From: a virus | Taxonomy: Duplodnaviria > Heunggongvirae > Uroviricota > Caudoviricetes | Virus record (IMG/VR): IMGVR_UViG_2703718846_000007 | Location: 1-9,788 of that record | Direction: 5' to 3' (one strand) | DNA: 9,788 nucleotides | Part shown: positions 1 through 9,788 of the stretch, piece by piece | Layout of the letters: each line of letters opens with the position of its first letter | How positions within the stretch are numbered: the stretch's first letter is position 1 | Made by a program: the position numbers and the translations under genes | The notes under the pieces: model-generated | Seen by the model: the letters and a program-made list of their open reading frames with translations, nothing else | The model's database searches: none | Told to the model about the DNA's origin: nothing

Positions 1-1110
1 TTATCCCCTGAACCCTGGTGGAATTTCGGTGTCCGGTTCAGAAATGTGATTCACACAACGCTGGTTGTTCGTGCCGCTTACCGGGAGCAACCAGGGGTTT
101 TCAAAATTCCGGTCCGGTCCAAAAAACGTCGTCGCTCGCTGAACAAATTCCGTTCCCGCTTTCCCGGTCGCCGCCAGGTATCTCGCATAACGCCTCACAC
201 CATCCAGCATGGTCTCTGGTGGCACCCCCTCGCGCAATCTGGCCTTCCAGGCACTGAATGCGGATTTCTTCGGGTTTGCCCCGGCACGCAACGGGTATTC
301 CCGCCAGACCTGTTCGAACACATCCGGATAATCCACTCGTCCCACAGGCCGCCCGGTGTTTTCCGGGACTACCCGATCGGCTTCCCGCTGAATGGCGGAA
401 TCGACTTCAGGCTGCTGCAGTTGGTGTGATTGCTCCGCCCCTGCGGTCATCGCCTGCTGCACAGCGCCCGAATCGGCTTTCAGCGCATACGCCGAATCGG
501 CTTCCGGTGTCGTGCCTGCTGGCTGACCAGAATTTACGGTCTGAACATCCCCTGCCTGGTTCGTGGTGTTTTTTTCGCCATGAACCATAGTGTTTTTGTC
601 CTGTTCCTGTTCTTTCTCCTGCTCCTGTTCTTGGCTTCGAAGCCCCTTAAAAGCCCCTTCAAAGCCCCTTACCGAATTTCGGCTATTATTCCGCCTCACA
701 TCAAGATGGAAATCCGTTTTATATCTGTCGTAAAACGCTGACAGAAAAGCGTTTTCAGGTAATGATGCATACTCATTCCTGACACCTGCACAACGGTTAT
801 CGCCTGGCTTCAACGTTTCCCCAACCTGCCAGGCTGCCATTTCATGGACCCAGACCATCTCGGCATCATGGTCATAGCTACAAAAACCAGCTTCAACAGC
901 CCTTTTAAGCCCCTTTGAAGCCCCTTCCAGACCAAGCCCGGTTTCATGAGCAAGGTATAAAACTGGCAGGTAATACAAACCCAGCATATTTGCGTGAGGG
1001 GATGTCATCAGGTAAAAAGCAACAACTTGCGCTTCTGCACCCGCCTTTCTAAGTTCTCTCCCCGTTTCTCCCAGCCAGAATCGCGGAGAAACTTTTGCGT
1101 AATCACGCAT
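1..1110 (-). CDS. Phage replication initiation / replisome organiser protein (O-like), with a low-complexity QEQEQEKEQEQ linker between N- and C-terminal domains
   Basis: ORF-track frame 1..1221 with TAA stop at 1-3. I place the start at ATG 1108-1110 because GAGG lies 5 nt upstream, whereas ATG 1219-1221 has no Shine-Dalgarno. The N-terminus MRDYAKVSPRFWLGETG... resembles DUF1376-type initiators and the C-terminus YPDVFEQVWREYP...FVQRATTFF resembles the DnaT-like domain of phage replication proteins, both from memory. Confidence 0.8.
   Translation of the reverse strand: MRDYAKVSPRFWLGETGRELRKAGAEAQVVAFYLMTSPHANMLGLYYLPVLYLAHETGLGLEGASKGLKRAVEAGFCSYDHDAEMVWVHEMAAWQVGETLKPGDNRCAGVRNEYASLPENAFLSAFYDRYKTDFHLDVRRNNSRNSVRGFEGAFKGLRSQEQEQEKEQEQDKNTMVHGEKNTTNQAGDVQTVNSGQPAGTTPEADSAYALKADSGAVQQAMTAGAEQSHQLQQPEVDSAIQREADRVVPENTGRPVGRVDYPDVFEQVWREYPLRAGANPKKSAFSAWKARLREGVPPETMLDGVRRYARYLAATGKAGTEFVQRATTFFGPDRNFENPWLLPVSGTNNQRCVNHISEPDTEIPPGFRG
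640..670. repeat. Iteron-like direct repeats, cluster 1: three tandem AAGCCCCTT copies at 11-bp spacing
   Basis: Copies at 640-648, 651-659 and 662-670 (plus-strand reading), lying inside the initiator CDS. The three copies fall in three different codon phases of that CDS. Confidence 0.5.
897..926. repeat. Iteron-like direct repeats, cluster 2: two AAGCCCCTT copies plus one degenerate copy
   Basis: Exact copies at 907-915 and 918-926 and a degenerate copy (AGCCCTTTT) at 897-905, spaced 10-11 bp, inside the same CDS about 260 bp from cluster 1. Confidence 0.45.
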
Positions 1111-1327
1111 GGCTACCTCATCTGGTGCCGAACCTTCCTCCGGATATAATCTGTGGTTCCCAATCAACAGAACCAGAGGAGGTTCGACATGTATTTTTTG
1201 AAAAGCCTTTATCAGGCTCATGTATTAAATGTTGCAGCAACAAACCGCTGGTGTAACAGCCCCGAAATGCTCCCGGATTACAGAGCCTGGCTGCGCGCCG
1301 AAACATACCTTCGTCTCGACATATTGA

Positions 1328-1837
1328 TTAGCGAACTTCAAAAAGAGACTGCATCCATTCATAACCTTCAGGGTATCGACGCTGTTCGCATTCTGGTATC
1401 GCGCCATAGTGCTCTCTCAATAATTGAAGTGCGTCATCTCTCTTTTTCTGAACTGATTTTCTTGCTTCAACCAGCTCTGGAATCAGCGAATATCCCACCG
1501 AAAGTGATCCAATACCCACCTCATGTTGACGAGCAGTTACAAGATGTGCCATACAACCAGCGTGCTGGATTGACTCCCTGCTCAGAGGCTGAATGGGATC
1601 ACTCTCTGCTGAAGAAATACCAAGATTTGTATAATCCTCAATAAGCCCGGCACACGCTTCTGCATCAGCCAGCTTTATTCTGGTTTCCTTGCGCTGTTCT
1701 CTGGCTGACAAACGCCAGAGCAGCGCATTAGCTTTATGTATCAACCACTCTGCCAGCTCCACATCAGATAAACCGCCACGCCAGATGTGCGGACTGTTTT
1801 CGTAAACGCTCAGTGTCAATTTTTTGTCATTACTCAT
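1328..1837 (-). CDS. Hypothetical protein (169 aa) between the CII-like and initiator genes
   Basis: ORF-track frame 1328..1888, trimmed to ATG 1835-1837, which lies 13 nt after the upstream gene's stop. It is co-directional with the replication operon, and my hand count gives 58% purine at codon position 1 versus 48% for the overlapping plus-strand ORF. No family recognised. Confidence 0.5.
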   Translation of the reverse strand: MSNDKKLTLSVYENSPHIWRGGLSDVELAEWLIHKANALLWRLSAREQRKETRIKLADAEACAGLIEDYTNLGISSAESDPIQPLSRESIQHAGCMAHLVTARQHEVGIGSLSVGYSLIPELVEARKSVQKKRDDALQLLREHYGAIPECEQRRYPEGYEWMQSLFEVR

Positions 1838-1850
1838 ATTTATTACCCAA

Positions 1851-2276
1851 TTAATGCACAGCCAGAGTGTTTCCTGCCGGGCCACCACGATTCATCTGAT
1901 CGAACAGAACGATCGCTGATGCAACGAAATCATCAATATCTTTCACCAGCCGTTCCTTCGTCTCTACCAACTCCCGAAAATAAGCGGAACTGTGGCTGCG
2001 CATTCGGGCCACCAGCGGAGGCGGCATCGCTTTTTCGATCGCTGGTAACAACGCCTGAATTTTTTTAACCGCATCAGGAGTGTCTTTCTCCACCCAGCGG
2101 AAAATTTTCTGGGTGTTACGGCCCAGGGCTTCCGGATGGCTGTCGTCGTACAATTCCGGGAACGTCATACCGAGTTCGAAATACGCTTTGGTAATTTTCG
2201 CAGCCGGAACTTTTTCACCGTTCAGATGTGCCCAGGCATTCATCGCCATGCGGATGTGTTCATGCTTGATTTTCAT
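1851..2276 (-). CDS. YdaT-family protein (CII-like regulator, historically annotated as toxin YdaT)
   Basis: 141-aa ORF immediately downstream of the Cro-like gene, with an ATGA start/stop overlap at 2273-2276. Size, position and the MKIKHEH... N-terminus fit the YdaS/YdaT arrangement of Rac-like prophages (recollection, not searched). Confidence 0.7.
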   Translation of the reverse strand: MKIKHEHIRMAMNAWAHLNGEKVPAAKITKAYFELGMTFPELYDDSHPEALGRNTQKIFRWVEKDTPDAVKKIQALLPAIEKAMPPPLVARMRSHSSAYFRELVETKERLVKDIDDFVASAIVLFDQMNRGGPAGNTLAVH

Positions 2277-2500
2277 GAATCACTATTCCTCTCGCCATGA
2301 GTGGTATCCTTCTTTTTGTAAAGTTCTGGGTTCAAAGATAACTTCCCCTTGGAGTATGCTGCGGCTTCCGCAGCCCTCCCCTTTGGAACTATTTCACCAG
2401 GTCGCCTACGCCACATGTAAATAGCTTCACGGGTTATCCCATAAAAATCGGCAACCCTCTGAACAGAACCAAAAAACTGGACAAGTTCATCAACTCGCAT
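2273..2500 (-). CDS. Cro-like HTH transcriptional regulator (YdaS family)
   Basis: 75-aa ORF with a strong Shine-Dalgarno (AAGGAGGG) 4 nt upstream of ATG 2498-2500. It is divergent from the repressor gene and carries an HTH-like segment VQRVADFYGITREAIYMW. Confidence 0.8.
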   Translation of the reverse strand: MRVDELVQFFGSVQRVADFYGITREAIYMWRRRPGEIVPKGRAAEAAAYSKGKLSLNPELYKKKDTTHGERNSDS

Positions 2501-2596
2501 TTAGCCCTCCTTCAATCTAATTATTTTTAGACTAAATGATAATTTTTTTTAGGTCAATGCAATCTAAAATAATTTATATTCAATTCACGGGAGAAA
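2501..2596. promoter_or_regulatory. Divergent immunity control region (pR-like and pRM-like promoters with operators)
   Basis: 96-bp AT-rich intergenic region between divergent cro-like and cI-like genes. Minus-strand TTGACC (plus 2552-2557), 17-bp spacer, TAGTCT (plus 2529-2534). Repeated TTTTAG / CTAAAA half-sites, e.g. TTTTAGG-N11-ATCTAAAA at 2545-2568. Confidence 0.6.
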
Positions 2597-3244
2597 ATGA
2601 TGGAAAGCCTTGGCATCAGGCTAAAGAGACTCAGAAAAGATAAGGGACTAACCCAAGTAGAACTGGGTAAGCTTTCAGGTGTAACTGGAGTTACTGTAGG
2701 GTACTGGGAGAAGGATCTAAACGAACCTGGTAGTAAAGCTCTAAGTAAATTAGCCCAGGCATTAGGAACTACTGAGTCCTACCTCCTGTATGGAGTATCG
2801 TCTCCTGAATCATCTTTTATGCAGATCAATCCAGGCTCTCAGATCCCCTATTTTTCTTGGGGTGACGCGATTTCTTTCCTAATTTTAGAAGGAGAGAAAG
2901 CTATGGGAAATGTCGATAGGATCACCACATTCTTTGATGTCGAGGAAGGTGATTTTGCCGTTTCAATGCCTGATGACACTATGCATAACCCAACTGGGTC
3001 GCCGAGCATCCCAGTTGGTGCCACAGTGATCCTAAGGCCTAGAGAAAGTTATAAAAATGGTAGCATCGTCGCTGTAATAGTTCCGGATCCGCTTACAAAT
3101 GAACCATCTATGACTATAAAAAAATTAGTTATTGATGGAAAGCTTGCGTACTTAAGCCCTCTTAATCCACGCTATCAATCATCTTTGCTTACACCAGAGT
3201 GTAAAATTGTTGCCGTAGCAAAAGGCGTACAGTTCAACTTATAG
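2597..3244 (+). CDS. cI: CI-like phage repressor with N-terminal HTH and C-terminal S24 (LexA-like) autopeptidase domain
   Basis: 215-aa ORF with GGGAG upstream. N-terminal HTH LTQVELGKLSGVTGVTVGYWE; C-terminal motifs AVSMPDD (catalytic Ser), TIKKLV (catalytic Lys) and LSPLNPRY align with lambda CI GNSM, TFKKLI and LQPLNPQY. Confidence 0.9.
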   Translation: MMESLGIRLKRLRKDKGLTQVELGKLSGVTGVTVGYWEKDLNEPGSKALSKLAQALGTTESYLLYGVSSPESSFMQINPGSQIPYFSWGDAISFLILEGEKAMGNVDRITTFFDVEEGDFAVSMPDDTMHNPTGSPSIPVGATVILRPRESYKNGSIVAVIVPDPLTNEPSMTIKKLVIDGKLAYLSPLNPRYQSSLLTPECKIVAVAKGVQFNL

Positions 3245-3266
3245 CCCCGTCAAACCCTTTAATCTG

Positions 3267-3292
3267 AGGTCGGCAATGCCGACCTTTTTTTT
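3267..3292 (+). terminator. Rho-independent terminator downstream of the repressor gene
   Basis: Hairpin GGTCGGC-AAT-GCCGACC at 3268-3284 followed by eight T at 3285-3292, 23 nt after the cI stop. Confidence 0.75.
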
Positions 3293-3312
3293 AAATTATT
3301 TTAGATTTTCGC

Positions 3313-3341
3313 TTGACTAAAAAACTAAATACTTTTAGATT
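3313..3341 (+). promoter_or_regulatory. pL-like sigma70 promoter for the early-left operon
   Basis: TTGACT (3313-3318), 17-bp spacer, TAGATT (3336-3341). Flanked by two copies of TTTTAGATTT (3299-3308 and 3333-3342), the same half-site motif seen in the cI/cro intergenic region. Confidence 0.5.
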
Positions 3342-3515
3342 TATCACATACCCAACCCGCCCCACAGAATGCAGGGCAATACTTCGAGTTACCAGGCAGT
3401 GGTCAGGGGTTAAGTAGCCAGCCCGAGGCGTAAGAACATGACGGCAGGGTTCAACTTTAACTATGCAGCAGGTTTTTGTTCCGCCACCCCGGCGTTAAAG
3501 GGAAATGAGGTCAGC

Positions 3516-3668
3516 ATGGATACTATCGATCTTGGCAACAACGAATCTCTGGTATACGGCGTGTTTCCAAACCAGGACGGTACGTTCACCGCGATGACGT
3601 ATACCAAAAGCAAAACGTTTAAAACCGAAGCTGGCGCGCGTCGCTGGTTAGCCAGAAATACTGACTGA
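3516..3668 (+). CDS. Small early protein (50 aa), YdaF-like / DUF1391-like
   Basis: ATG 3516 with GAGG 5 nt upstream; TGA stop at 3666-3668. The ORF-track frame extends upstream to 3438 but that start is less well supported. Family assignment is from memory only. Confidence 0.55.
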   Translation: MDTIDLGNNESLVYGVFPNQDGTFTAMTYTKSKTFKTEAGARRWLARNTD

Positions 3669-3679
3669 TGAGGTTAACG

Positions 3680-4315
3680 ATGGAATTTAAAGATTTACCG
3701 CTATCAATCCAGGAGATTGCAGCACACACACTACGTCAACGTCTGAACGAAGCTATGGCTGAATCTGCAACGAAAGAAACCATTGATAACATGGCTCGTA
3801 ATGTGCACGATGCGTTTACCGGATTGTATTTCTGTGCGTCTGTAAATAAACACGACCCAGAGAGTGTGGCAAAGAAAATTGCAGAAACGACAGTGCAAAA
3901 CATCAATACGAAACCAACCGAAGACGAAATTGACCAGCCTGCCAGTGAACAAAAGAAAGAAAAATCGCCATATGCGGGGAACATGTTTGTTTATGACAAA
4001 CTTATCCGAATTCGTGGCGAAATTCCGACTGAATACCTGGCAAAAATTCACCAGGCATTACTTAAAAATCTGGAAACGGAAGTATTTGATGGCAACACCA
4101 ACGGCTCCTTCGTGGTGTCAGCCCTCACAAAAGAGTGGGATACAGATAATCGCCGGAATGTTGCTACATGGTTATTCAGCAACAAAGCTGCTGCCCTGGA
4201 AGCTGCGGCCTGTATTTGCGACCTGCTAAGGACAGACCGCAAATACAACCTGGATGTGTATAGCTATATTTATGCTGAACACTATCCACTCTGGATTGAC
4301 TGGTTTAAAGGGTAA
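3680..4315 (+). CDS. Hypothetical early protein (211 aa), function unknown
   Basis: ORF-track frame 3668..4315. ATG 3680 has GAGG 6 nt upstream; the alternative ATG 3668 overlaps the preceding stop (TGATG). Soluble, non-repetitive protein; no motif recognised. Confidence 0.7.
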   Translation: MEFKDLPLSIQEIAAHTLRQRLNEAMAESATKETIDNMARNVHDAFTGLYFCASVNKHDPESVAKKIAETTVQNINTKPTEDEIDQPASEQKKEKSPYAGNMFVYDKLIRIRGEIPTEYLAKIHQALLKNLETEVFDGNTNGSFVVSALTKEWDTDNRRNVATWLFSNKAAALEAAACICDLLRTDRKYNLDVYSYIYAEHYPLWIDWFKG

Positions 4316-4412
4316 CACCTGCGGGACCGAGCCGACCAGCACCACGATTATTTTATCCTCCATTAAGGGGTGAATTAAAAATGGAGACCAACACGCTGCT
4401 ACGTGTGGTCGT

Positions 4413-4452
4413 GCGCCGGACACGGATAACCTTCCGGCATGCTCTTTAACAA
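4413..4452 (+). promoter_or_regulatory. Candidate processive-antitermination site: hairpin followed by an rrn-type boxA (TGCTCTTTAACAA)
   Basis: Exact 13-mer TGCTCTTTAACAA at 4440-4452 on the plus strand, preceded by hairpin GCCGGA-N12-TCCGGC at 4415-4438. Orientation matches pL-directed transcription. Confidence 0.4.
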
Positions 4453-4477
4453 TCTGGATATCCACAACAGCAATAAC

Positions 4478-4996
4478 CTACGGATTGCTGCTCAATGCTC
4501 TACCTATCTCTTCTTCAGATGGGGGCGGTATATAGTCATCATTGCGTTCAAATTTAAAGCGCGAATCACATTTCAGGCATTTAGAAATATGGAACTTATC
4601 ATGCTCACCAATTTCAACAGGTTGAAGTATTGCTATTACACCATGCTGATAGCAATTGGGACAGGCATAGTGAAAACATGTGTCTTCTTCGTCGAGGCTG
4701 TTCCTGAAAGCATAGACAAAATGCCCAAAACCAGTTTTGTGTATCGTATAGCATTCAAGTTTTCGATTACGCTCGTCAATTTCATGACATTTTTGCTTAA
4801 GCAAGAGTATTTCCTCGTACTGAAGCGCGAGCGTTTTCGCTAGCTCTGCGTTCTGTATTTGTAAGTCTGCCAGTTGGCGACGCATTTCGTAGACAGCCTT
4901 TTCACGTTCAGATTGGCTTTTTGCATCAAGTATTACCTGTAATAAATCAATCGAGACTTTAATTGCCGTTATTGATGAAGTTATTCCAGATAGCAT
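4478..4996 (-). CDS. Hypothetical coiled-coil plus zinc-ribbon protein (172 aa) on an antisense-oriented AT-rich insert
   Basis: ORF-track frame 4478..5113, trimmed to ATG 4994-4996 because a perfect TATAAT lies about 32 nt upstream. N-terminal heptad-like region RRQLADLQIQNAELAKTLALQYEEILLLKQK; C-terminal CPNC...CLKC cysteine pairs. GC is visibly lower than in the flanks. Confidence 0.65.
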   Translation of the reverse strand: MLSGITSSITAIKVSIDLLQVILDAKSQSEREKAVYEMRRQLADLQIQNAELAKTLALQYEEILLLKQKCHEIDERNRKLECYTIHKTGFGHFVYAFRNSLDEEDTCFHYACPNCYQHGVIAILQPVEIGEHDKFHISKCLKCDSRFKFERNDDYIPPPSEEEIGRALSSNP

Positions 4997-5007
4997 TCTT
5001 AACTCTC

Positions 5008-5060
5008 TGTGTTGTTGGGGTATCCGGATTATACAAATTTCTTGTTGTTGGGGAACAACA
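5008..5060 (-). promoter_or_regulatory. Promoter and candidate operators for the antisense gene
   Basis: Minus-strand TATAAT (plus 5028-5033). Two copies of TGTTGTTGGGG (plus 5010-5020 and 5043-5053); the second forms a perfect palindrome TGTTGTT-GGGG-AACAACA (5043-5060) over the -35 region. Confidence 0.5.
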
Positions 5061-5313
5061 GGAACCACCTCGCCTGATGTGGTTAAAAGCAGGCACACAA
5101 CACGAAAGCGCACGGCGAAGGTTTCTTTTCCTTAGAAGGCTTGTCGTTAGATTTCTTCGACCGTGCGCTTCCGGTTGTGGCAATCCGCGAAATGGCGCGG
5201 CGGTAAGTATGGCGGGGTTATCCTTACCCCCACTGGTAGCACCGGGTTGTCAGGTTGACCATACGCTTAAGTGACAACCCCGCTACAACACTCCATGTTG
5301 AGTATTGACCTTT

Positions 5314-5354
5314 GGCGGCATCAGTTTAATTGCTGGCTGATGTCCGCCCTTTTT
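5314..5354 (+). terminator. Rho-independent terminator (plus strand)
   Basis: Stem GGCGGCATCAG (5314-5324), 12-nt loop, stem CTGATGTCCGCC (5337-5348), then CTTTTT (5349-5354). Confidence 0.6.
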
Positions 5355-5550
5355 AAAGTGAATTTTGTGATGTGGTGAATGCGGCTAAGCGCACGCGGAA
5401 CAGTTAAAAGACCATTTGTTCTCCGTATCAATACTTATGGGTAGGTACTTGCAGGCGGGTCCCTGTATTCCGGCGTTAATTGTTAACTGGTTAACGTCAC
5501 CTGGAGGCACCAGGCACCGCATCACAAAATTCATTGTTGAGGACGCGATA

Positions 5551-5739
5551 ATGGAAACGTTATTACTCAATTCCACTACGCCTGAGACTCGTTTTGAAAT
5601 TGGCGTTATCACTGGCGATAAAAACTTTATTGAAGATGCCATTAATCAGATAAAGCATGAGCCAGATTCATCAAATGAGATATGCATTGCTTCAATGCTG
5701 GCCCGTTTACGCCCGACGCAAAAAGGATGCTGGCAATGA
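5551..5739 (+). CDS. Hypothetical small protein (62 aa)
   Basis: ATG 5551 with GAGGA 7 nt upstream; stop TGA 5737-5739 overlaps the next start. The ORF-track frame begins at 5416 but upstream in-frame starts lack a Shine-Dalgarno and use rare codons. Confidence 0.45.
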   Translation: METLLLNSTTPETRFEIGVITGDKNFIEDAINQIKHEPDSSNEICIASMLARLRPTQKGCWQ

Positions 5740-5939
5740 ATACCACATTTGCACTTGTTCTGACGGTTTTTCTTGTTTCCGGTGAACCAGTTGACATGGT
5801 TATTGGCGTATACAGCTCAATGAAAGAATGCATGGCTGCCGCAGATGAACAGAAAATTCCCGGTAACTGTTATCCGGTCGATAAAGTTATTCACCAGGAT
5901 AATAACGAAATCCCGGCAGGACTTAAAACAGCGCCGTAA
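5736..5939 (+). CDS. Hypothetical small protein (67 aa) with an N-terminal hydrophobic segment
   Basis: ATG 5736 overlaps the upstream stop (ATGA), with AAGGA 8 nt upstream. N-terminus MNTTFALVLTVFLVSG looks like a signal peptide or transmembrane helix. The ORF-track frame starts at 5682. Confidence 0.5.
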   Translation: MNTTFALVLTVFLVSGEPVDMVIGVYSSMKECMAAADEQKIPGNCYPVDKVIHQDNNEIPAGLKTAP

Positions 5940-6016
5940 TTGATATTCGGTTTCATTTTTATATGTCAGCAATGACAGGGATTTGTTCACCCTTAAATCT
6001 GTAATGAGGTTTATCA

Positions 6017-8482
6017 ATGAGCACTGATAAAGAAGAATTTGCATTATATTGTGAAGCAAAAAATGACAAAGTCAGAAAACGCCTTGGAATTAAAGGTGGT
6101 TTTTACTGGACTACAGCAAAAAAATTATCTGTTGCCATCTCCCGCTGCATTACCGCAATGGATGACAACGATTATGATGAAGACGACTTTAAAAAACCCG
6201 TCCGCGTCCATTTACCCGTTGTGAATGACCTTCCACCTGAAGGCGTGTTTGATACTGAATTCTGTAACCGTTACGAAAAAGGCGGGGAAGATGGCATCAC
6301 AATGGTATTTATCGCGCCCTCACCCTCTGCGCAGGACAAACCAGCCAACACTGACAATACCAACGTCAACGGCGAAGACATGACTGAGATTGAGGAGAAC
6401 ATGCTCCTGCCGGTTTCAGGTCAGATTCTGCCTGTTCGATGGCTGGCACAGCACGGCAGCGAAAAACCGATCACACACGTTTCGCGGGACGAACTGCGCG
6501 CATTACATAACGCACAGGATGAAAAACTTCCCGCCGTTACCGCGCTGGCTATCTCAAATAAAGCAGCGCAACTCGAACCGCTGGAGATTCGCGATCTCCA
6601 CAAACTGGTGCGAGACACTGACAAAGTTTTCCCCGCCCCCGTAAATTCGGACCTGGGACTGATAACTTCTTTTATCGAAGCATACCTGGACGCCGACTAC
6701 ACCGATCGCGGTCTGCTGACAAAAGAGTGGATGAAAGGAAATCGTGTTTCGCGTATCACCCGTACGGCTTCCGGTGCAAATGCCGGTGGCGGGAACAAAA
6801 CCGATCGCAATCCGAATTTAGTACACACCTTCGATACGCTGGATGTGGAGACTGCAGCAGCCACACTTCCGATGGATTTTAATATTTATGAAATTCCGGG
6901 TAGCGTTTATCGTCGCGCAAAAGAAATCGTCCTGAAAAGAGAAAGTCCGTTCAAAGAATGGTCCGCAGCACTTCGCGCAACCCCGGGTATTCTGGATTAT
7001 TCCCGCGCCGCTATTTTTGCACTTATCCGGAGCGCTCACCCTGAGTTTTATCACTACCCGGGACGCCTTCAGGGGTATATCAACGCCCACTTAACGGAGA
7101 CTGATCACGAGAACCCCAGCAAGGAAACTCTCACTGCTGCACGACATACACCGGAAAAAGATATCCTGGAAGAAGTTAACCGCGAACTGGCTGCTGAACG
7201 CGAAACAGAAGAAGAAAAAAATAATGAGGAAAAATCACAACCGTCTGACGCAATGGCAGATGAACAGGCAACGGCCGAAGCAATGGAGCCGGATACAACT
7301 GAACATCACCAGGACACGCAATCGCTGGATACTCAGGAACAGGTAGATCCAGTTAAACAGGTAAAAGTTACCGCTGACGAAGTAAACAAAATTATGCAGG
7401 CAGCCAATATCAACCAGCCTGATGCCGACAAAATACTGGCAGTCCATCGCGGTGAGTTCGTTGACGGAATTAGCGACCCGAATGATCCGAAATGGGTTAA
7501 GGGGATTGAAACCCGCGATTCTGTGAACCAGAACCTGCCCGAATCGGAACAAAACGACCAGAAAGCGGAACAGAACAGCCCAAATACGTTACAAAACGAG
7601 CCAGAAACGAAACAGCCTGAACCAGAAGAGCAACAAGAACCGGAAAAAGTCTGCACCGCCTGCGGTCAGAGCGGTGGCGGCAACTGCCCTGATTGTGGCG
7701 CGGTGATGGGCGACGCAACATACCAGGAAACATTCGATGAAGAGAATCAGGCTGAAACTCAGGAAAATGATCCGGAGGAAATGGAAGGCGCTGAACATCC
7801 GAACAATGAGAATGCTGGTAACGATCAGCATCACACCAGCGATAGTAAAACTGGCGAGGCGGCAGATCCCTTAATTACGGTGAACAGTCATCACATTATC
7901 ACATCCACCAGCAGGGTATGGCACCATCTGATGATCGACCTTGAAACGATGGGAATTAACAGCAATGCGCCCATCGTAGTTATTGCTGCAGTGTTTTTCG
8001 ATCCGCAGACCGGGGAAATCGGACCGATATTTTATGTTGTCATCAGTCTGGTTGACGCAATGGACAAAGGTGCTACTCCCGATGGTGACGTAATCGAATG
8101 GTGGCTGGCGCAGTCCAGCGAGGCCAGATCTGCAATATTGGTAAATCAAATTCCGTTAGATGATGCACTATTGCAATTGCGGGAATTTATCGACGAAAAC
8201 TCCGGTGAATTTTTTGTTCGGGTCTGGGGAAATGGAGCCAGCTTCGACAACGTGATTTTACGCCGTTCATATGAACGGCAGGGTATCCCCTGCCCGTGGC
8301 GTTACTGCAACGATCGCGATGTGCGCACAATCGTTGATCTGGGAAAAGCCATAGACTTCGATGCCAGAACAGCTATTCCGTTCGAAGGCGTACGCCATAA
8401 TGCACTGGATGATGCCCGCCACCAGGCAAAACAAGTTTCAGCTATCTGGCAAAAACTGATCCCGAGTCAGGTTGATTTTTAA
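6017..8482 (+). CDS. Large prophage exonuclease (821 aa): RecE/exodeoxyribonuclease VIII-like N-terminal region, acidic low-complexity linker, CxxC-x9-CxxC zinc ribbon, C-terminal DEDDh-type 3'-5' exonuclease domain
   Basis: ATG 6017 with GAGG 7 nt upstream. C-terminal about 196 aa (nt 7892-8479) carry DEDDh motifs MIDLET, GNGASFD and HNALDD. Zinc ribbon CTACGQSGGGNCPDCG near nt 7651-7700. N-terminal segments (NTNVNGEDMTEIEENMLLP..., DYTDRGLLTKEWMKGNRVS...) resemble enterobacterial exonuclease VIII proteins as I recall them. Confidence 0.85.
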   Translation: MSTDKEEFALYCEAKNDKVRKRLGIKGGFYWTTAKKLSVAISRCITAMDDNDYDEDDFKKPVRVHLPVVNDLPPEGVFDTEFCNRYEKGGEDGITMVFIAPSPSAQDKPANTDNTNVNGEDMTEIEENMLLPVSGQILPVRWLAQHGSEKPITHVSRDELRALHNAQDEKLPAVTALAISNKAAQLEPLEIRDLHKLVRDTDKVFPAPVNSDLGLITSFIEAYLDADYTDRGLLTKEWMKGNRVSRITRTASGANAGGGNKTDRNPNLVHTFDTLDVETAAATLPMDFNIYEIPGSVYRRAKEIVLKRESPFKEWSAALRATPGILDYSRAAIFALIRSAHPEFYHYPGRLQGYINAHLTETDHENPSKETLTAARHTPEKDILEEVNRELAAERETEEEKNNEEKSQPSDAMADEQATAEAMEPDTTEHHQDTQSLDTQEQVDPVKQVKVTADEVNKIMQAANINQPDADKILAVHRGEFVDGISDPNDPKWVKGIETRDSVNQNLPESEQNDQKAEQNSPNTLQNEPETKQPEPEEQQEPEKVCTACGQSGGGNCPDCGAVMGDATYQETFDEENQAETQENDPEEMEGAEHPNNENAGNDQHHTSDSKTGEAADPLITVNSHHIITSTSRVWHHLMIDLETMGINSNAPIVVIAAVFFDPQTGEIGPIFYVVISLVDAMDKGATPDGDVIEWWLAQSSEARSAILVNQIPLDDALLQLREFIDENSGEFFVRVWGNGASFDNVILRRSYERQGIPCPWRYCNDRDVRTIVDLGKAIDFDARTAIPFEGVRHNALDDARHQAKQVSAIWQKLIPSQVDF

Positions 8483-8548
8483 TGTTCAACCCTGATCGCC
8501 GTCTCCGAATTATATTGGCGGCGGTCATGCTGTAAGGCACGTGACCAC

Positions 8549-8800
8549 ATGTACGAATTAACTCTATCGCCAGCAGAGATTCAAGAGATCACGAGATACG
8601 AGCGATACACAAGACAGCAACACCAGTTAAGGCTGCACGGAATTCCATTTGTAACCGGACCTAAAAATGAACCAATAGTTCTTCGCAAGGACGTTCCGCT
8701 AGGGCTGACATCGATACCGGATGCATCTGAACTGGTTTCTGCCGAACCTGATTTTGAGGCACTAAATAATGGGAAGACCAAGAATAAACAAAAAAGATAA
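8549..8800 (+). CDS. Putative excisionase / recombination directionality factor
   Basis: 83-aa ORF immediately upstream of int, overlapping it by 32 nt, as lambda xis overlaps int. No sequence similarity to lambda Xis recognised, so the call is positional. Confidence 0.45.
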   Translation: MYELTLSPAEIQEITRYERYTRQQHQLRLHGIPFVTGPKNEPIVLRKDVPLGLTSIPDASELVSAEPDFEALNNGKTKNKQKR

Positions 8801-9788
8801 TGTACTGCCACCACGGGTTAGATCGAATGGTTACAGTTACGTATGGAAACCCAAAGGAAGCACGAGAACGATAAGGCTCGGAAGGGTGCGGGAAACCAGC
8901 GTGGCTAAAGTCTGGCAAAATTATGAACTGGAAAAGGCAAAACTCCACGACATAATGACCGTCGCTAAATTATGGCACATGTTTATGGACTCCCCTGCAT
9001 TTACAGAATTGGCACCCCGAACTCAAAAAGATTATCGACAACATCAAAGGGCGTTGCTGGCGGTATTCGGAAAAGTGCTTGCTGATAATGTAAAAATTGA
9101 GCAGGTAAGAATTTTCATGGATAAACGGGGGCTTGAGAGCAAGACCCAGGCAAATCATGAACTGGCAAGTCTGAGTCGCGTATATGGATGGGGGTATGAG
9201 CGTGGGTATGTGAAAAATAATCCATGCAAAGGAGTCAGAAAATTCACGCTTAAAGCCCGTACTGTTTACATCACCGATGAACAGTATGCTGCGATATATG
9301 CGGAAGCAATTCCACAGTTACGTATTGCAATGGAGATATCCTATCTTTGTGCGGCAAGGCTCGGTGATGTACTCGAGCTGAAATGGCAGGATATTATGGA
9401 TAAAGGGATTTACATTGAGCAAAACAAGACCGGCACTAAACAAATCAAGGAATGGTCTCCGCGATTACGCACAGTGATCCAATTAGCCCGAAATGTATCT
9501 TCCGGCACATGCGAGTATGTGATCAACACAACCAAAGGCGGGAAGGTCATAGCTAAAACGCTGAACAACTGGTGGAATCAGGCTAAACGTGCAGCCGAGC
9601 AAAAAGCCGACGTTCCGTTTGGGTGCAACTTCCATGACATAAAAGCCAAAGGGATTTCAGATTACGAAGGCAGCAGCCGCGACAAACAAATTTTCAGTGG
9701 GCACAAAACAGAAAATCAGGTGTTGATTTATGATCGCAAAACAAAAATCACGCCAACACTGGATCTACCTCTTGTGGTCAGTAAGTAA
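8769..9788 (+). CDS. int: Tyrosine recombinase, lambda-family phage integrase
   Basis: 339-aa ORF with GAGG 9 nt upstream and TAA stop at 9786-9788. The catalytic region aligns to lambda Int: RLGDVLELKW (Arg-I), YIEQNKTGTK (Lys), FHDIK (His), GHK (His) and LIYDRK (Tyr). The N-terminus is basic like the arm-binding domain. Confidence 0.9.
   Translation: MGRPRINKKDNVLPPRVRSNGYSYVWKPKGSTRTIRLGRVRETSVAKVWQNYELEKAKLHDIMTVAKLWHMFMDSPAFTELAPRTQKDYRQHQRALLAVFGKVLADNVKIEQVRIFMDKRGLESKTQANHELASLSRVYGWGYERGYVKNNPCKGVRKFTLKARTVYITDEQYAAIYAEAIPQLRIAMEISYLCAARLGDVLELKWQDIMDKGIYIEQNKTGTKQIKEWSPRLRTVIQLARNVSSGTCEYVINTTKGGKVIAKTLNNWWNQAKRAAEQKADVPFGCNFHDIKAKGISDYEGSSRDKQIFSGHKTENQVLIYDRKTKITPTLDLPLVVSK

Follow-up and report, generated by a model that had tools for sequence, protein, structure and literature searches.

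We describe a pair of antisense genes in a stretch of 9,788 nucleotides (nt) from a Caudoviricetes record (IMG/VR record IMGVR_UViG_2703718846_000007, positions 1 to 9,788; the whole stretch is hereafter called the window), which is the immunity-replication region of an Escherichia coli prophage of the Rac/lambdoid type. Two long open reading frames (ORFs) on opposite strands overlap there tail to tail, and we conclude, with a probability of about 0.72, that they are a conserved two-gene cassette comprising a real plus-strand gene and an overlapping minus-strand gene, apparently dual-coding over 317 nt. Specifically, on the strength of comparative sequence analysis, i) the plus ORF is a real protein-coding gene antisense to the prophage early operon, and its substitution pattern is that of purifying selection; ii) the un-annotated minus partner, judged in the same way, is also a conserved gene, and is the new element here; iii) taken as a pair, the two are very probably both genes; and iv) the overlap itself is probably dual-coding, with the plus frame dominant. 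The three features at issue are:

1189-1644, plus strand: the plus ORF, 151 codons and a stop, with its ATG at 1189
1328-1837, minus strand: the minus ORF, 169 codons, with its ATG at 1837 and its stop at 1328-1330
1328-1644, both strands: the tail-to-tail overlap, 317 nt, probably dual-coding

Across the overlap, plus codon position 1 faces minus position 1, position 2 faces 3, and position 3 faces 2. This arrangement can be followed through a comparison set of about 18 distinct diverged versions of the locus (labelled L031, L037 and so on), in which protein identity falls to about 30%. The plus ORF, of 151-157 codons, is unbroken in every version but two pseudogenes (L031, with a stop at codon 98, and L067, with tryptophan 34 changed to a stop); 13 of about 17-18 versions have an intact minus ORF in the same phase; and among the 13 lineages in which both ORFs are intact the phase of the pair is identical in 13/13, with a minus stop of nearly constant place and phase in 12. 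In a distant clade (L069, L070, and L071) the plus protein is about 30-35% identical to that of the window, the minus ORF lies in the same phase, the overlaps measure 257-269 nt, and hidden Markov models (HMMs) recover both products at E-values of 1e-32 to 1e-46 (plus) and 1e-28 to 1e-44 (minus); a six-frame HMM search confirmed that the minus gene is present in L071. Each disruption of one ORF is positioned so that the other is spared: the minus ORF is frameshifted in L043/L044 and in L037, a 1-nt deletion at window position 1804 disrupts the minus start region but leaves the plus ORF intact in the L063 type (E. coli 2014C-3050), and the plus ORF persists in L041/L042, from which the minus ORF is absent. 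The L063-type deletion is common to several complete genomes (H128-H132, including two O111:H11 strains). The cassette occupies at least three contexts, i.e. between the cII-like and replication genes in E. coli, between cro and a cII-like gene in L069, and within a Cox...ExoVIII early operon in Salmonella, and in all of them the 169-residue gene is co-directional with the host operon and the 151-residue gene is antisense to it.

We compared these versions by Nei-Gojobori proportions of nonsynonymous and synonymous differences (pN and pS), by mean pairwise differences at each codon position, and by a site-class test modelled on OLGenie and pooled over four phylogenetically independent close pairs. 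In the part of the plus ORF that lies outside the overlap (codons 1-46), variability at codon positions 1, 2, and 3 is.33/.20/.56, and pS is at saturation (0.6-1.0) against a pN of about 0.25, for a pN/pS of about 0.25-0.45; in the corresponding part of the minus ORF (codons 1-64, 190 nt), read in the minus frame, variability is.31/.22/.50. The site-class ratios for the real frames are 0.14 (plus-only part, dNN/dSN) and 0.08 (minus-only part, dNN/dNS), both with P<0.0005, compared with 0.72 and 0.85 respectively for fake opposite-frame controls in the same two parts, neither of which is significant. Since the real frames are constrained and the fake frames are not, both ORFs are coding, and the test is not badly biased.

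Within the overlap, the lineages that have both ORFs display a flat positional variability of.34/.36/.37, and pS is down to 0.4-0.5 in either frame, compared with 0.7-1.0 outside. When the same DNA is compared with L041, which is without the minus ORF, an ordinary plus-frame pattern returns (.49/.43/.69, with pS 0.77-0.88). The pooled pairs give a plus dNN/dSN of 0.41 (95% interval 0.24-0.69, P=0.0005) and a minus dNN/dNS of 0.46 (95% interval 0.28-0.75, P=0.001); within the overlap the plus frame is more strongly and consistently constrained than the minus. Synonymous resampling with the plus protein held fixed left the minus frame open in 0.3-30% of trials, depending on the lineage, yet that frame is open in 13 of about 17 lineages; resampling with the minus protein held fixed left the plus frame open in 0.8-11.5%.

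These results bear on a first-pass annotation of the window, whose coordinates for a TATAAT hexamer, an AGGAGG, the plus ATG, both ORFs, their overlap, and the 217-bp gap between the minus ORF and the replication gene (1111-1327) all proved correct on re-reading. It had supposed that only one of the overlapping ORFs was likely to be real and had leaned towards the minus gene; neither supposition survives, since both ORFs show coding-type selection and the plus ORF too is under purifying selection. The small antisense gene that it offered as an alternative is what we find, in that the plus ORF is conserved, selected, and already called by RefSeq and its Prokaryotic Genome Annotation Pipeline (PGAP). 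Protein searches with both translations, which it had proposed as a check, were run and returned clear homologues for both rather than the one-sided outcome that it regarded as refuting; because such searches do not separate the two ORFs, we relied on comparative sequence analysis.

The plus product matches NCBIfam NF033230 with 104.6 bits (cut-off 70; E 4.6e-30; profile positions 3-141 of 142), and an identical or near-identical ORF carries the ECs1072 name in RefSeq. Its homologues among 1.84 billion representatives fall into 24 clusters (E<=0.001) of 144-161 amino acid residues (aa), almost all close to 150 aa; at that length members of the family reach about 30% identity, and there are full-length homologues in Salmonella down to about 50%. 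The minus product aligns over its full length, residues 1-169, to positions 1-169 of the phrog_8304 profile (E 3.7e-119), and has homologues down to 46-54% identity, including full-length ones in Salmonella at about 50%; conservation is highest in its motif SPHIWRGGLSD..ELA.WL..KANA, within the N-terminal part that lies outside the overlap. The Shine-Dalgarno (SD) sequence and ATG of the minus gene are conserved, the SD being strong in most lineages, including the Salmonella versions (AGGAGGATATATG). From only 8 sequences, AlphaFold returned a confident all-helical model of the plus protein (predicted local distance difference test score, pLDDT, 85.7; predicted template modelling score, pTM, 0.82); for the minus protein it is confident only over a long helix at residues 25-72. 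This asymmetry of model and constraint would fit a shared stretch whose plus frame is the older or the dominant one. The plus protein has no significant fold or sequence relative (Foldseek against BFVD, nothing at E<=0.001), a sequence search of the PDB yielded only noise for both proteins (E 0.33 and 0.014), Pfam has no match for either, and no family among the PADLOC defence models matches either at E<=1.

The most conserved part of the locus is neither ORF: it is the stretch of about 75 nt that precedes the plus ATG, TGGTGCCGAACCTCCTGACGGTGnTAGCCTGC...CCAACAGAACCnnAGGAGGTTCGAC-ATG, within which we distinguish the following elements:

1111-1188, plus strand: leader cassette, an element of about 75 nt running from the replication-gene start to the plus ATG
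1129-1140, plus strand: 5′ arm of an inverted repeat (anti-SD, CGAACCTTCCTC), which pairs with 1175-1186
1145-1150, plus strand: candidate TATAAT hexamer, read directly in the window
1145-1152, plus strand: candidate -10 region, in which TATAAT (1145-1150) overlaps TAATCT (1147-1152)
1175-1186, plus strand: 3′ arm of the inverted repeat, which contains the SD
1177-1191, plus strand: SD and start codon, AGGAGG at 1177-1182, the 6-nt spacer TTCGAC, and ATG at 1189

The sequence AGGAGGTTCGAC and the start codon are kept, with at most one changed base, in 20 of the 20 diverged leaders that were aligned, and the proteins behind those leaders are down to 45-50% identical or are unrelated; that these signals are kept while the downstream proteins diverge argues that they are more than chance. 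The plus-gene SD can also be seen in the translated N-terminal extension of a distant family member, P0028 (QNRRRFDM). TATAAT itself is confined to the E. coli clade. The aligned position elsewhere reads TGnTAGCCT, with which TAATCT (1147-1152) aligns, and hexamer positions 1, 2, and 6 (T, A, and T; TAnnnT) are invariant in the 20 leaders; the hexamer lies 38 nt before the ATG. Most copies have a TG in front of it; the E. coli clade does not, and has the improved hexamer TATAAT. The rest of the loop, just downstream, varies in sequence and length. We read TAnnnT as a putative extended -10 promoter with a transcription start near 1157. A generic sigma-70 scan of 900-2000, which needs both hexamers, reported no promoter because there is no good -35.

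The arms of the inverted repeat, CGAACCTCCT and AGGAGGTTCG (window 1129-1140 and 1175-1186), are complementary, and the predicted folds are stable on either strand (-29.9 kcal/mol, z -3.0, for plus; -34.2 kcal/mol, z -2.6, for minus). Over the 20 leaders the arms pair in 95.5% of cells, compared with 35-54% when they are slid relative to one another, and there are two compensatory double changes, one of which (in L067) keeps the pair and destroys the SD of the pseudogenised plus ORF. The inverted repeat is predicted to be able to sequester the ribosome-binding site of the plus gene; alternatively, the hairpin could arise in the operon RNA of the minus strand, immediately before the ribosome-binding site of the next gene. 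If the promoter does lie in the loop, the 5′ arm would be absent from the plus gene's own mRNA, and in a predicted RNA starting near 1157 we find only a local 5-bp hairpin (1170-1174 with 1181-1185) that leaves the SD partly in its loop. Rfam has no family for the leader, either in the window (E<=1) or in canonical copies.

A pattern scan found the same leader before unrelated antisense ORFs of 87, 89, 153, and 70 aa in six further prophages, where this cargo is flanked by a cII-like gene on one side and a replication gene of the DUF1376 type on the other:

L052, 10870-11197: leader and unrelated cargo
L055, 8696-9030: leader and unrelated cargo
L060, 4153-4429: leader and unrelated cargo
L056, L057, and L061, reverse strand: leader and unrelated cargo

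A constant leader with varying cargo suggests that accessory genes share a slot for expression here. Two tandem leader-plus-ORF units occur in L042 (166-627 and 719-1174, equivalent to L041 3001-3462 and following), the first with an ORF of the ECs1072 family and the second with an unrelated ORF of 151 aa. This lineage alone shows no sign of the minus gene. On the reverse strand of L057 (oriented 7537-7998, plus) the 153-aa cargo ORF overlaps a convergent 137-aa ORF (7766-8179, minus) by 233 nt. We considered the L057 pair and the second L042 ORF as possible distant relatives of the window's families; their HMM scores were 0-3 bits, so that no homology is claimed. Rfam matches at gathering score near related loci were to the sok antitoxin RNA (74.4 bits) and sRNA-Xcc1 (72.9 bits), at L057 9609-9775 and L055 3103-3188.

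The neighbours of the cassette in the window are:

1-1110, minus strand: replication gene, DnaD/initiator-like, with its ATG at 1110
1851-2276, minus strand: YdaT/cII-like gene
2273-2500, minus strand: P22-Cro-like gene
2597-3244, plus strand: cI-like repressor

The early operon, on the minus strand, thus runs from the cro-like gene through the YdaT/cII-like gene and the 169-aa gene to the replication genes. The replication ORF is open further upstream, to an ATG at 1221 (window 1-1221, minus), and would then overlap the start of the plus gene; RefSeq and a conserved SD favour the ATG at 1110. In CP-933P, a promoter equivalent to pRE and a YdaT operator lie between ydaS and ydaT (PMC9986795), and we considered whether the plus promoter might be such a YdaT-activated pRE equivalent. 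This was ruled out: the matching operator site is instead at 2266-2283, at the junction of the cro-like and YdaT genes, where TTGATTN6AATCAC has one mismatch to the YdaT operator consensus TTGATTN6AATCAA. A second operator-like site with two mismatches, at 1324-1341, falls exactly at the minus ORF stop; with three matches found and 1.1 expected, it is within chance.

DNA nearly identical to the cassette is present in 457 of 5,426 complete E. coli genomes (about 8%), including SE11, O157:H7 EDL933, and other O157:H7 strains. Among 50,697 isolated phage genomes there was no match to the DNA by megablast or to either protein by tblastn; prophages that bear the cassette may be mostly cryptic, or seldom recovered as plaques. 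A profile search of genome contigs with the plus-family alignment gave no confirmed locus. RefSeq/PGAP annotates the plus ORF only (ECs1072 family phage-associated protein, WP_000273724.1, in hundreds of genomes) and leaves the minus ORF blank, whereas in PHROGs it is the minus ORF that has a family, over its full length, and the plus ORF that has none. Each product therefore matches its own family, NF033230 or phrog_8304, but both families are names only, each resource covers one strand, and neither records the overlap; the pair thus exposes a blind spot of annotation, RefSeq showing one gene of the two and PHROGs only the other. In EDL933 (L064, NZ_CP008957.1 1253998-1259646) the plus ORF occupies 1256691-1257146 and the locus tags run RS06150, RS32100, RS06160, and the missing RS06155 suggests that an earlier annotation, probably of the minus ORF, was replaced by the plus gene.

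Several observations weigh against the two-gene cassette as we read it. The minus ORF is broken in L043/L044, L037, and the L063 type, and the plus ORF in L031 and L067. AlphaFold models the overlapped minus tail poorly (pLDDT under 50 at residues 73-119 and 150-169); L039/L040 have a shorter tail, and that of L067 bears an in-frame deletion of 7 codons. Minus-frame selection in the overlap is the weaker of the two, and is marginal for the E. coli clade alone (0.64, 95% interval 0.40-1.03), while the overlap of L069/L070 shows a plus-frame pattern only (.31/.23/.44). In the leader, the promoter is read from conservation only, without a -35, and no terminator was found; the covariation of the hairpin is thin, 33 of 500 shuffles doing as well. 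Both proteins are absent from the isolated phage genomes, and the published expression trace for ECs1072 is scarce, consisting only of a microarray fold change in O157 Sakai (PMC2241611); the supplements of PMC5597208 held no expression data for either product.

How far these observations favour another explanation depends on which part of the cassette is doubted. If only the plus gene were real, the minus ORF would be an accidental open frame that runs opposite it and then on through non-coding DNA, and this would agree with the PGAP annotation of the plus ORF alone, the poor AlphaFold model of the minus protein, the four lineages in which the minus ORF is frameshifted or absent, and the plus-frame pattern of the L069/L070 overlap. 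We nevertheless think it improbable, given that the 190-nt minus-only part evolves as minus-frame coding sequence (0.08, versus 0.85 for the fake plus frame), that the minus SD and ATG are conserved, and that the N-terminal motif SPHIWRGGLSD..ELA.WL is kept in the distant loci (HMM E 1e-28 to 1e-44). The converse, in which only the minus gene is real and the plus ORF and its signals are fortuitous or serve an antisense RNA only, is scarcely credible: the minus ORF is indeed co-directional with the operon and has a PHROGs family, but the plus-only part has a dNN/dSN of 0.14 with saturated pS, the plus ORF survives without the minus ORF in L041/L042, its SD and ATG are close to invariant, and it belongs to a family of about 150 aa that extends to about 30% identity and has a confident fold prediction.

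Both genes could also be real with the overlap a mere by-product, the overlapped tail of about 105 minus codons being tolerated and largely unconstrained or disordered. We consider this unlikely. The low pLDDT over 73-169, the truncated tails of L039/L040, the 7-codon deletion of L067, the marginal E. coli clade test, the plus-frame pattern of L069/L070, and a chance of 0.14-0.30 of an open minus frame in some lineages all point towards it; it is opposed by the pooled minus dNN/dNS of 0.46 (P=0.001, versus 0.72 in the fake-frame control), by plus third positions that are half as variable inside the overlap as outside and recover in the comparison with L041, and by a minus stop whose place and phase hardly change in 12 of 13 lineages. 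Lastly, a regulatory RNA might be the main product, as with lambda oop or STnc6030 of BTP1, acting antisense on the early operon in immunity or superinfection exclusion, with the protein secondary. The position and orientation equal those of oop, the plus transcript probably continues antisense into the YdaT-like gene since no plus-strand terminator precedes that gene, and long prophage antisense RNAs with exclusion activity, namely STnc6030, are documented (PMC7067206). What is conserved here, however, is a translated frame, selected at the amino acid level, whose SD and ATG are invariant; Rfam gave no match; and the other ORFs driven by this leader are unrelated and have no homologous target opposite them, all of which makes an RNA as main product quite improbable. 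By analogy, the plus transcript may have a second, RNA-level role.

Returning to the two-gene cassette, we suggest that the plus gene would be read antisense to the early operon from its own strong ribosome-binding site and a putative promoter of the extended -10 type in the leader, and that the minus gene would be expressed as part of the early operon. The two genes converge, and 317 bases are common to the last 105 or so codons of each, in a fixed phase. The plus gene could be an accessory gene expressed in the lysogen ("moron"-like), and the minus gene would presumably be expressed on induction; the two transcripts, with 317 nt or more of complementary sequence, would then work against one another. 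The long stem would lock the SD only in plus transcripts begun upstream of the leader's promoter, and so might insulate the gene from read-through. We wish to stress that the further step, in which the pair is a mutual-exclusion device, one mRNA antagonising the other, and the leader a portable, read-through-insulated module for antisense accessory genes, is tentative and in our view doubtful.

Fold-back inhibition in IS10 depends on a sequence complementary to the ribosome-binding site that lies upstream of the transposase's own promoter, so that only read-through transcripts sequester the site. The leader resembles it in that the anti-SD arm lies upstream of the plus gene's candidate promoter; this is an analogy only, as the promoter position and the role of the hairpin are themselves inferred.

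Morons are autonomously expressed prophage accessory genes, dispensable for the lytic programme, such as lambda bor and lom. The plus gene is like them in having a candidate self-contained expression signal before it, in occupying a slot whose cargo varies between related prophages, and in that the cassette stands in a different prophage operon in Salmonella; the leader shared with unrelated cargo likewise points to a reusable insertion or expression slot beside Rac/lambdoid replication genes. The plus gene differs from morons in that no own or flanking terminator was found on the plus strand after 1644, its composition is the same as that of its flanks, and it overlaps an operon gene over 317 nt.

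Lambda oop is a non-coding RNA, 77 nt long, that has a terminator of its own. It is transcribed from pO at the cII/O junction, in antisense to the 3′ end of the gene that precedes the replication gene (PMC7067206), and the first-pass annotation had proposed an oop-like antisense transcript for the window. Its place and orientation hold, the plus gene lying at the same point of the map (the junction of the cII-like and replication genes) and antisense in the same sense, but the likeness to a short RNA does not: here there is a conserved ORF of 151 codons with a consensus SD and ATG, no Rfam match, and no terminator-like site on the plus strand over 1189-2000, the first weak one being at 2014-2031. 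Moreover, the overlapped partner is not the cII-like gene but an extra 169-aa gene, and a plus transcript would reach the YdaT/cII-like gene (1851-2276) only by read-through. A conserved translated ORF without a terminator thus fails the defining features of an oop-type small RNA.

A further comparison is with the antisense overlapping genes of E. coli O157:H7, nog1, laoB, ano, asa, and pop (PMC5810103, PMC5960689, PMC6294744, PMC7103648, PMC9927249), which likewise consist of two long ORFs on opposite strands in enterohaemorrhagic E. coli, one of them annotated. Claims of long antisense coding overlap in bacteria are disputed, since the evidence for most candidates is expression data on young ORFs; those five are young embedded ORFs supported mainly by RNA sequencing and ribosome profiling, whereas the support for the pair in the window is comparative. 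The pair sets itself apart in that both partners are kept across genera, they overlap only in part and by their tails, the non-overlapping part of each partner serves as an internal control and proves coding, and a natural lineage without one partner (L041) shows the constraint released. The plus gene was already annotated; what is new is its conserved partner, which makes the locus an antisense overlap found across genera, about 260-320 nt long and provided with internal controls, alongside a leader cassette that is reusable.

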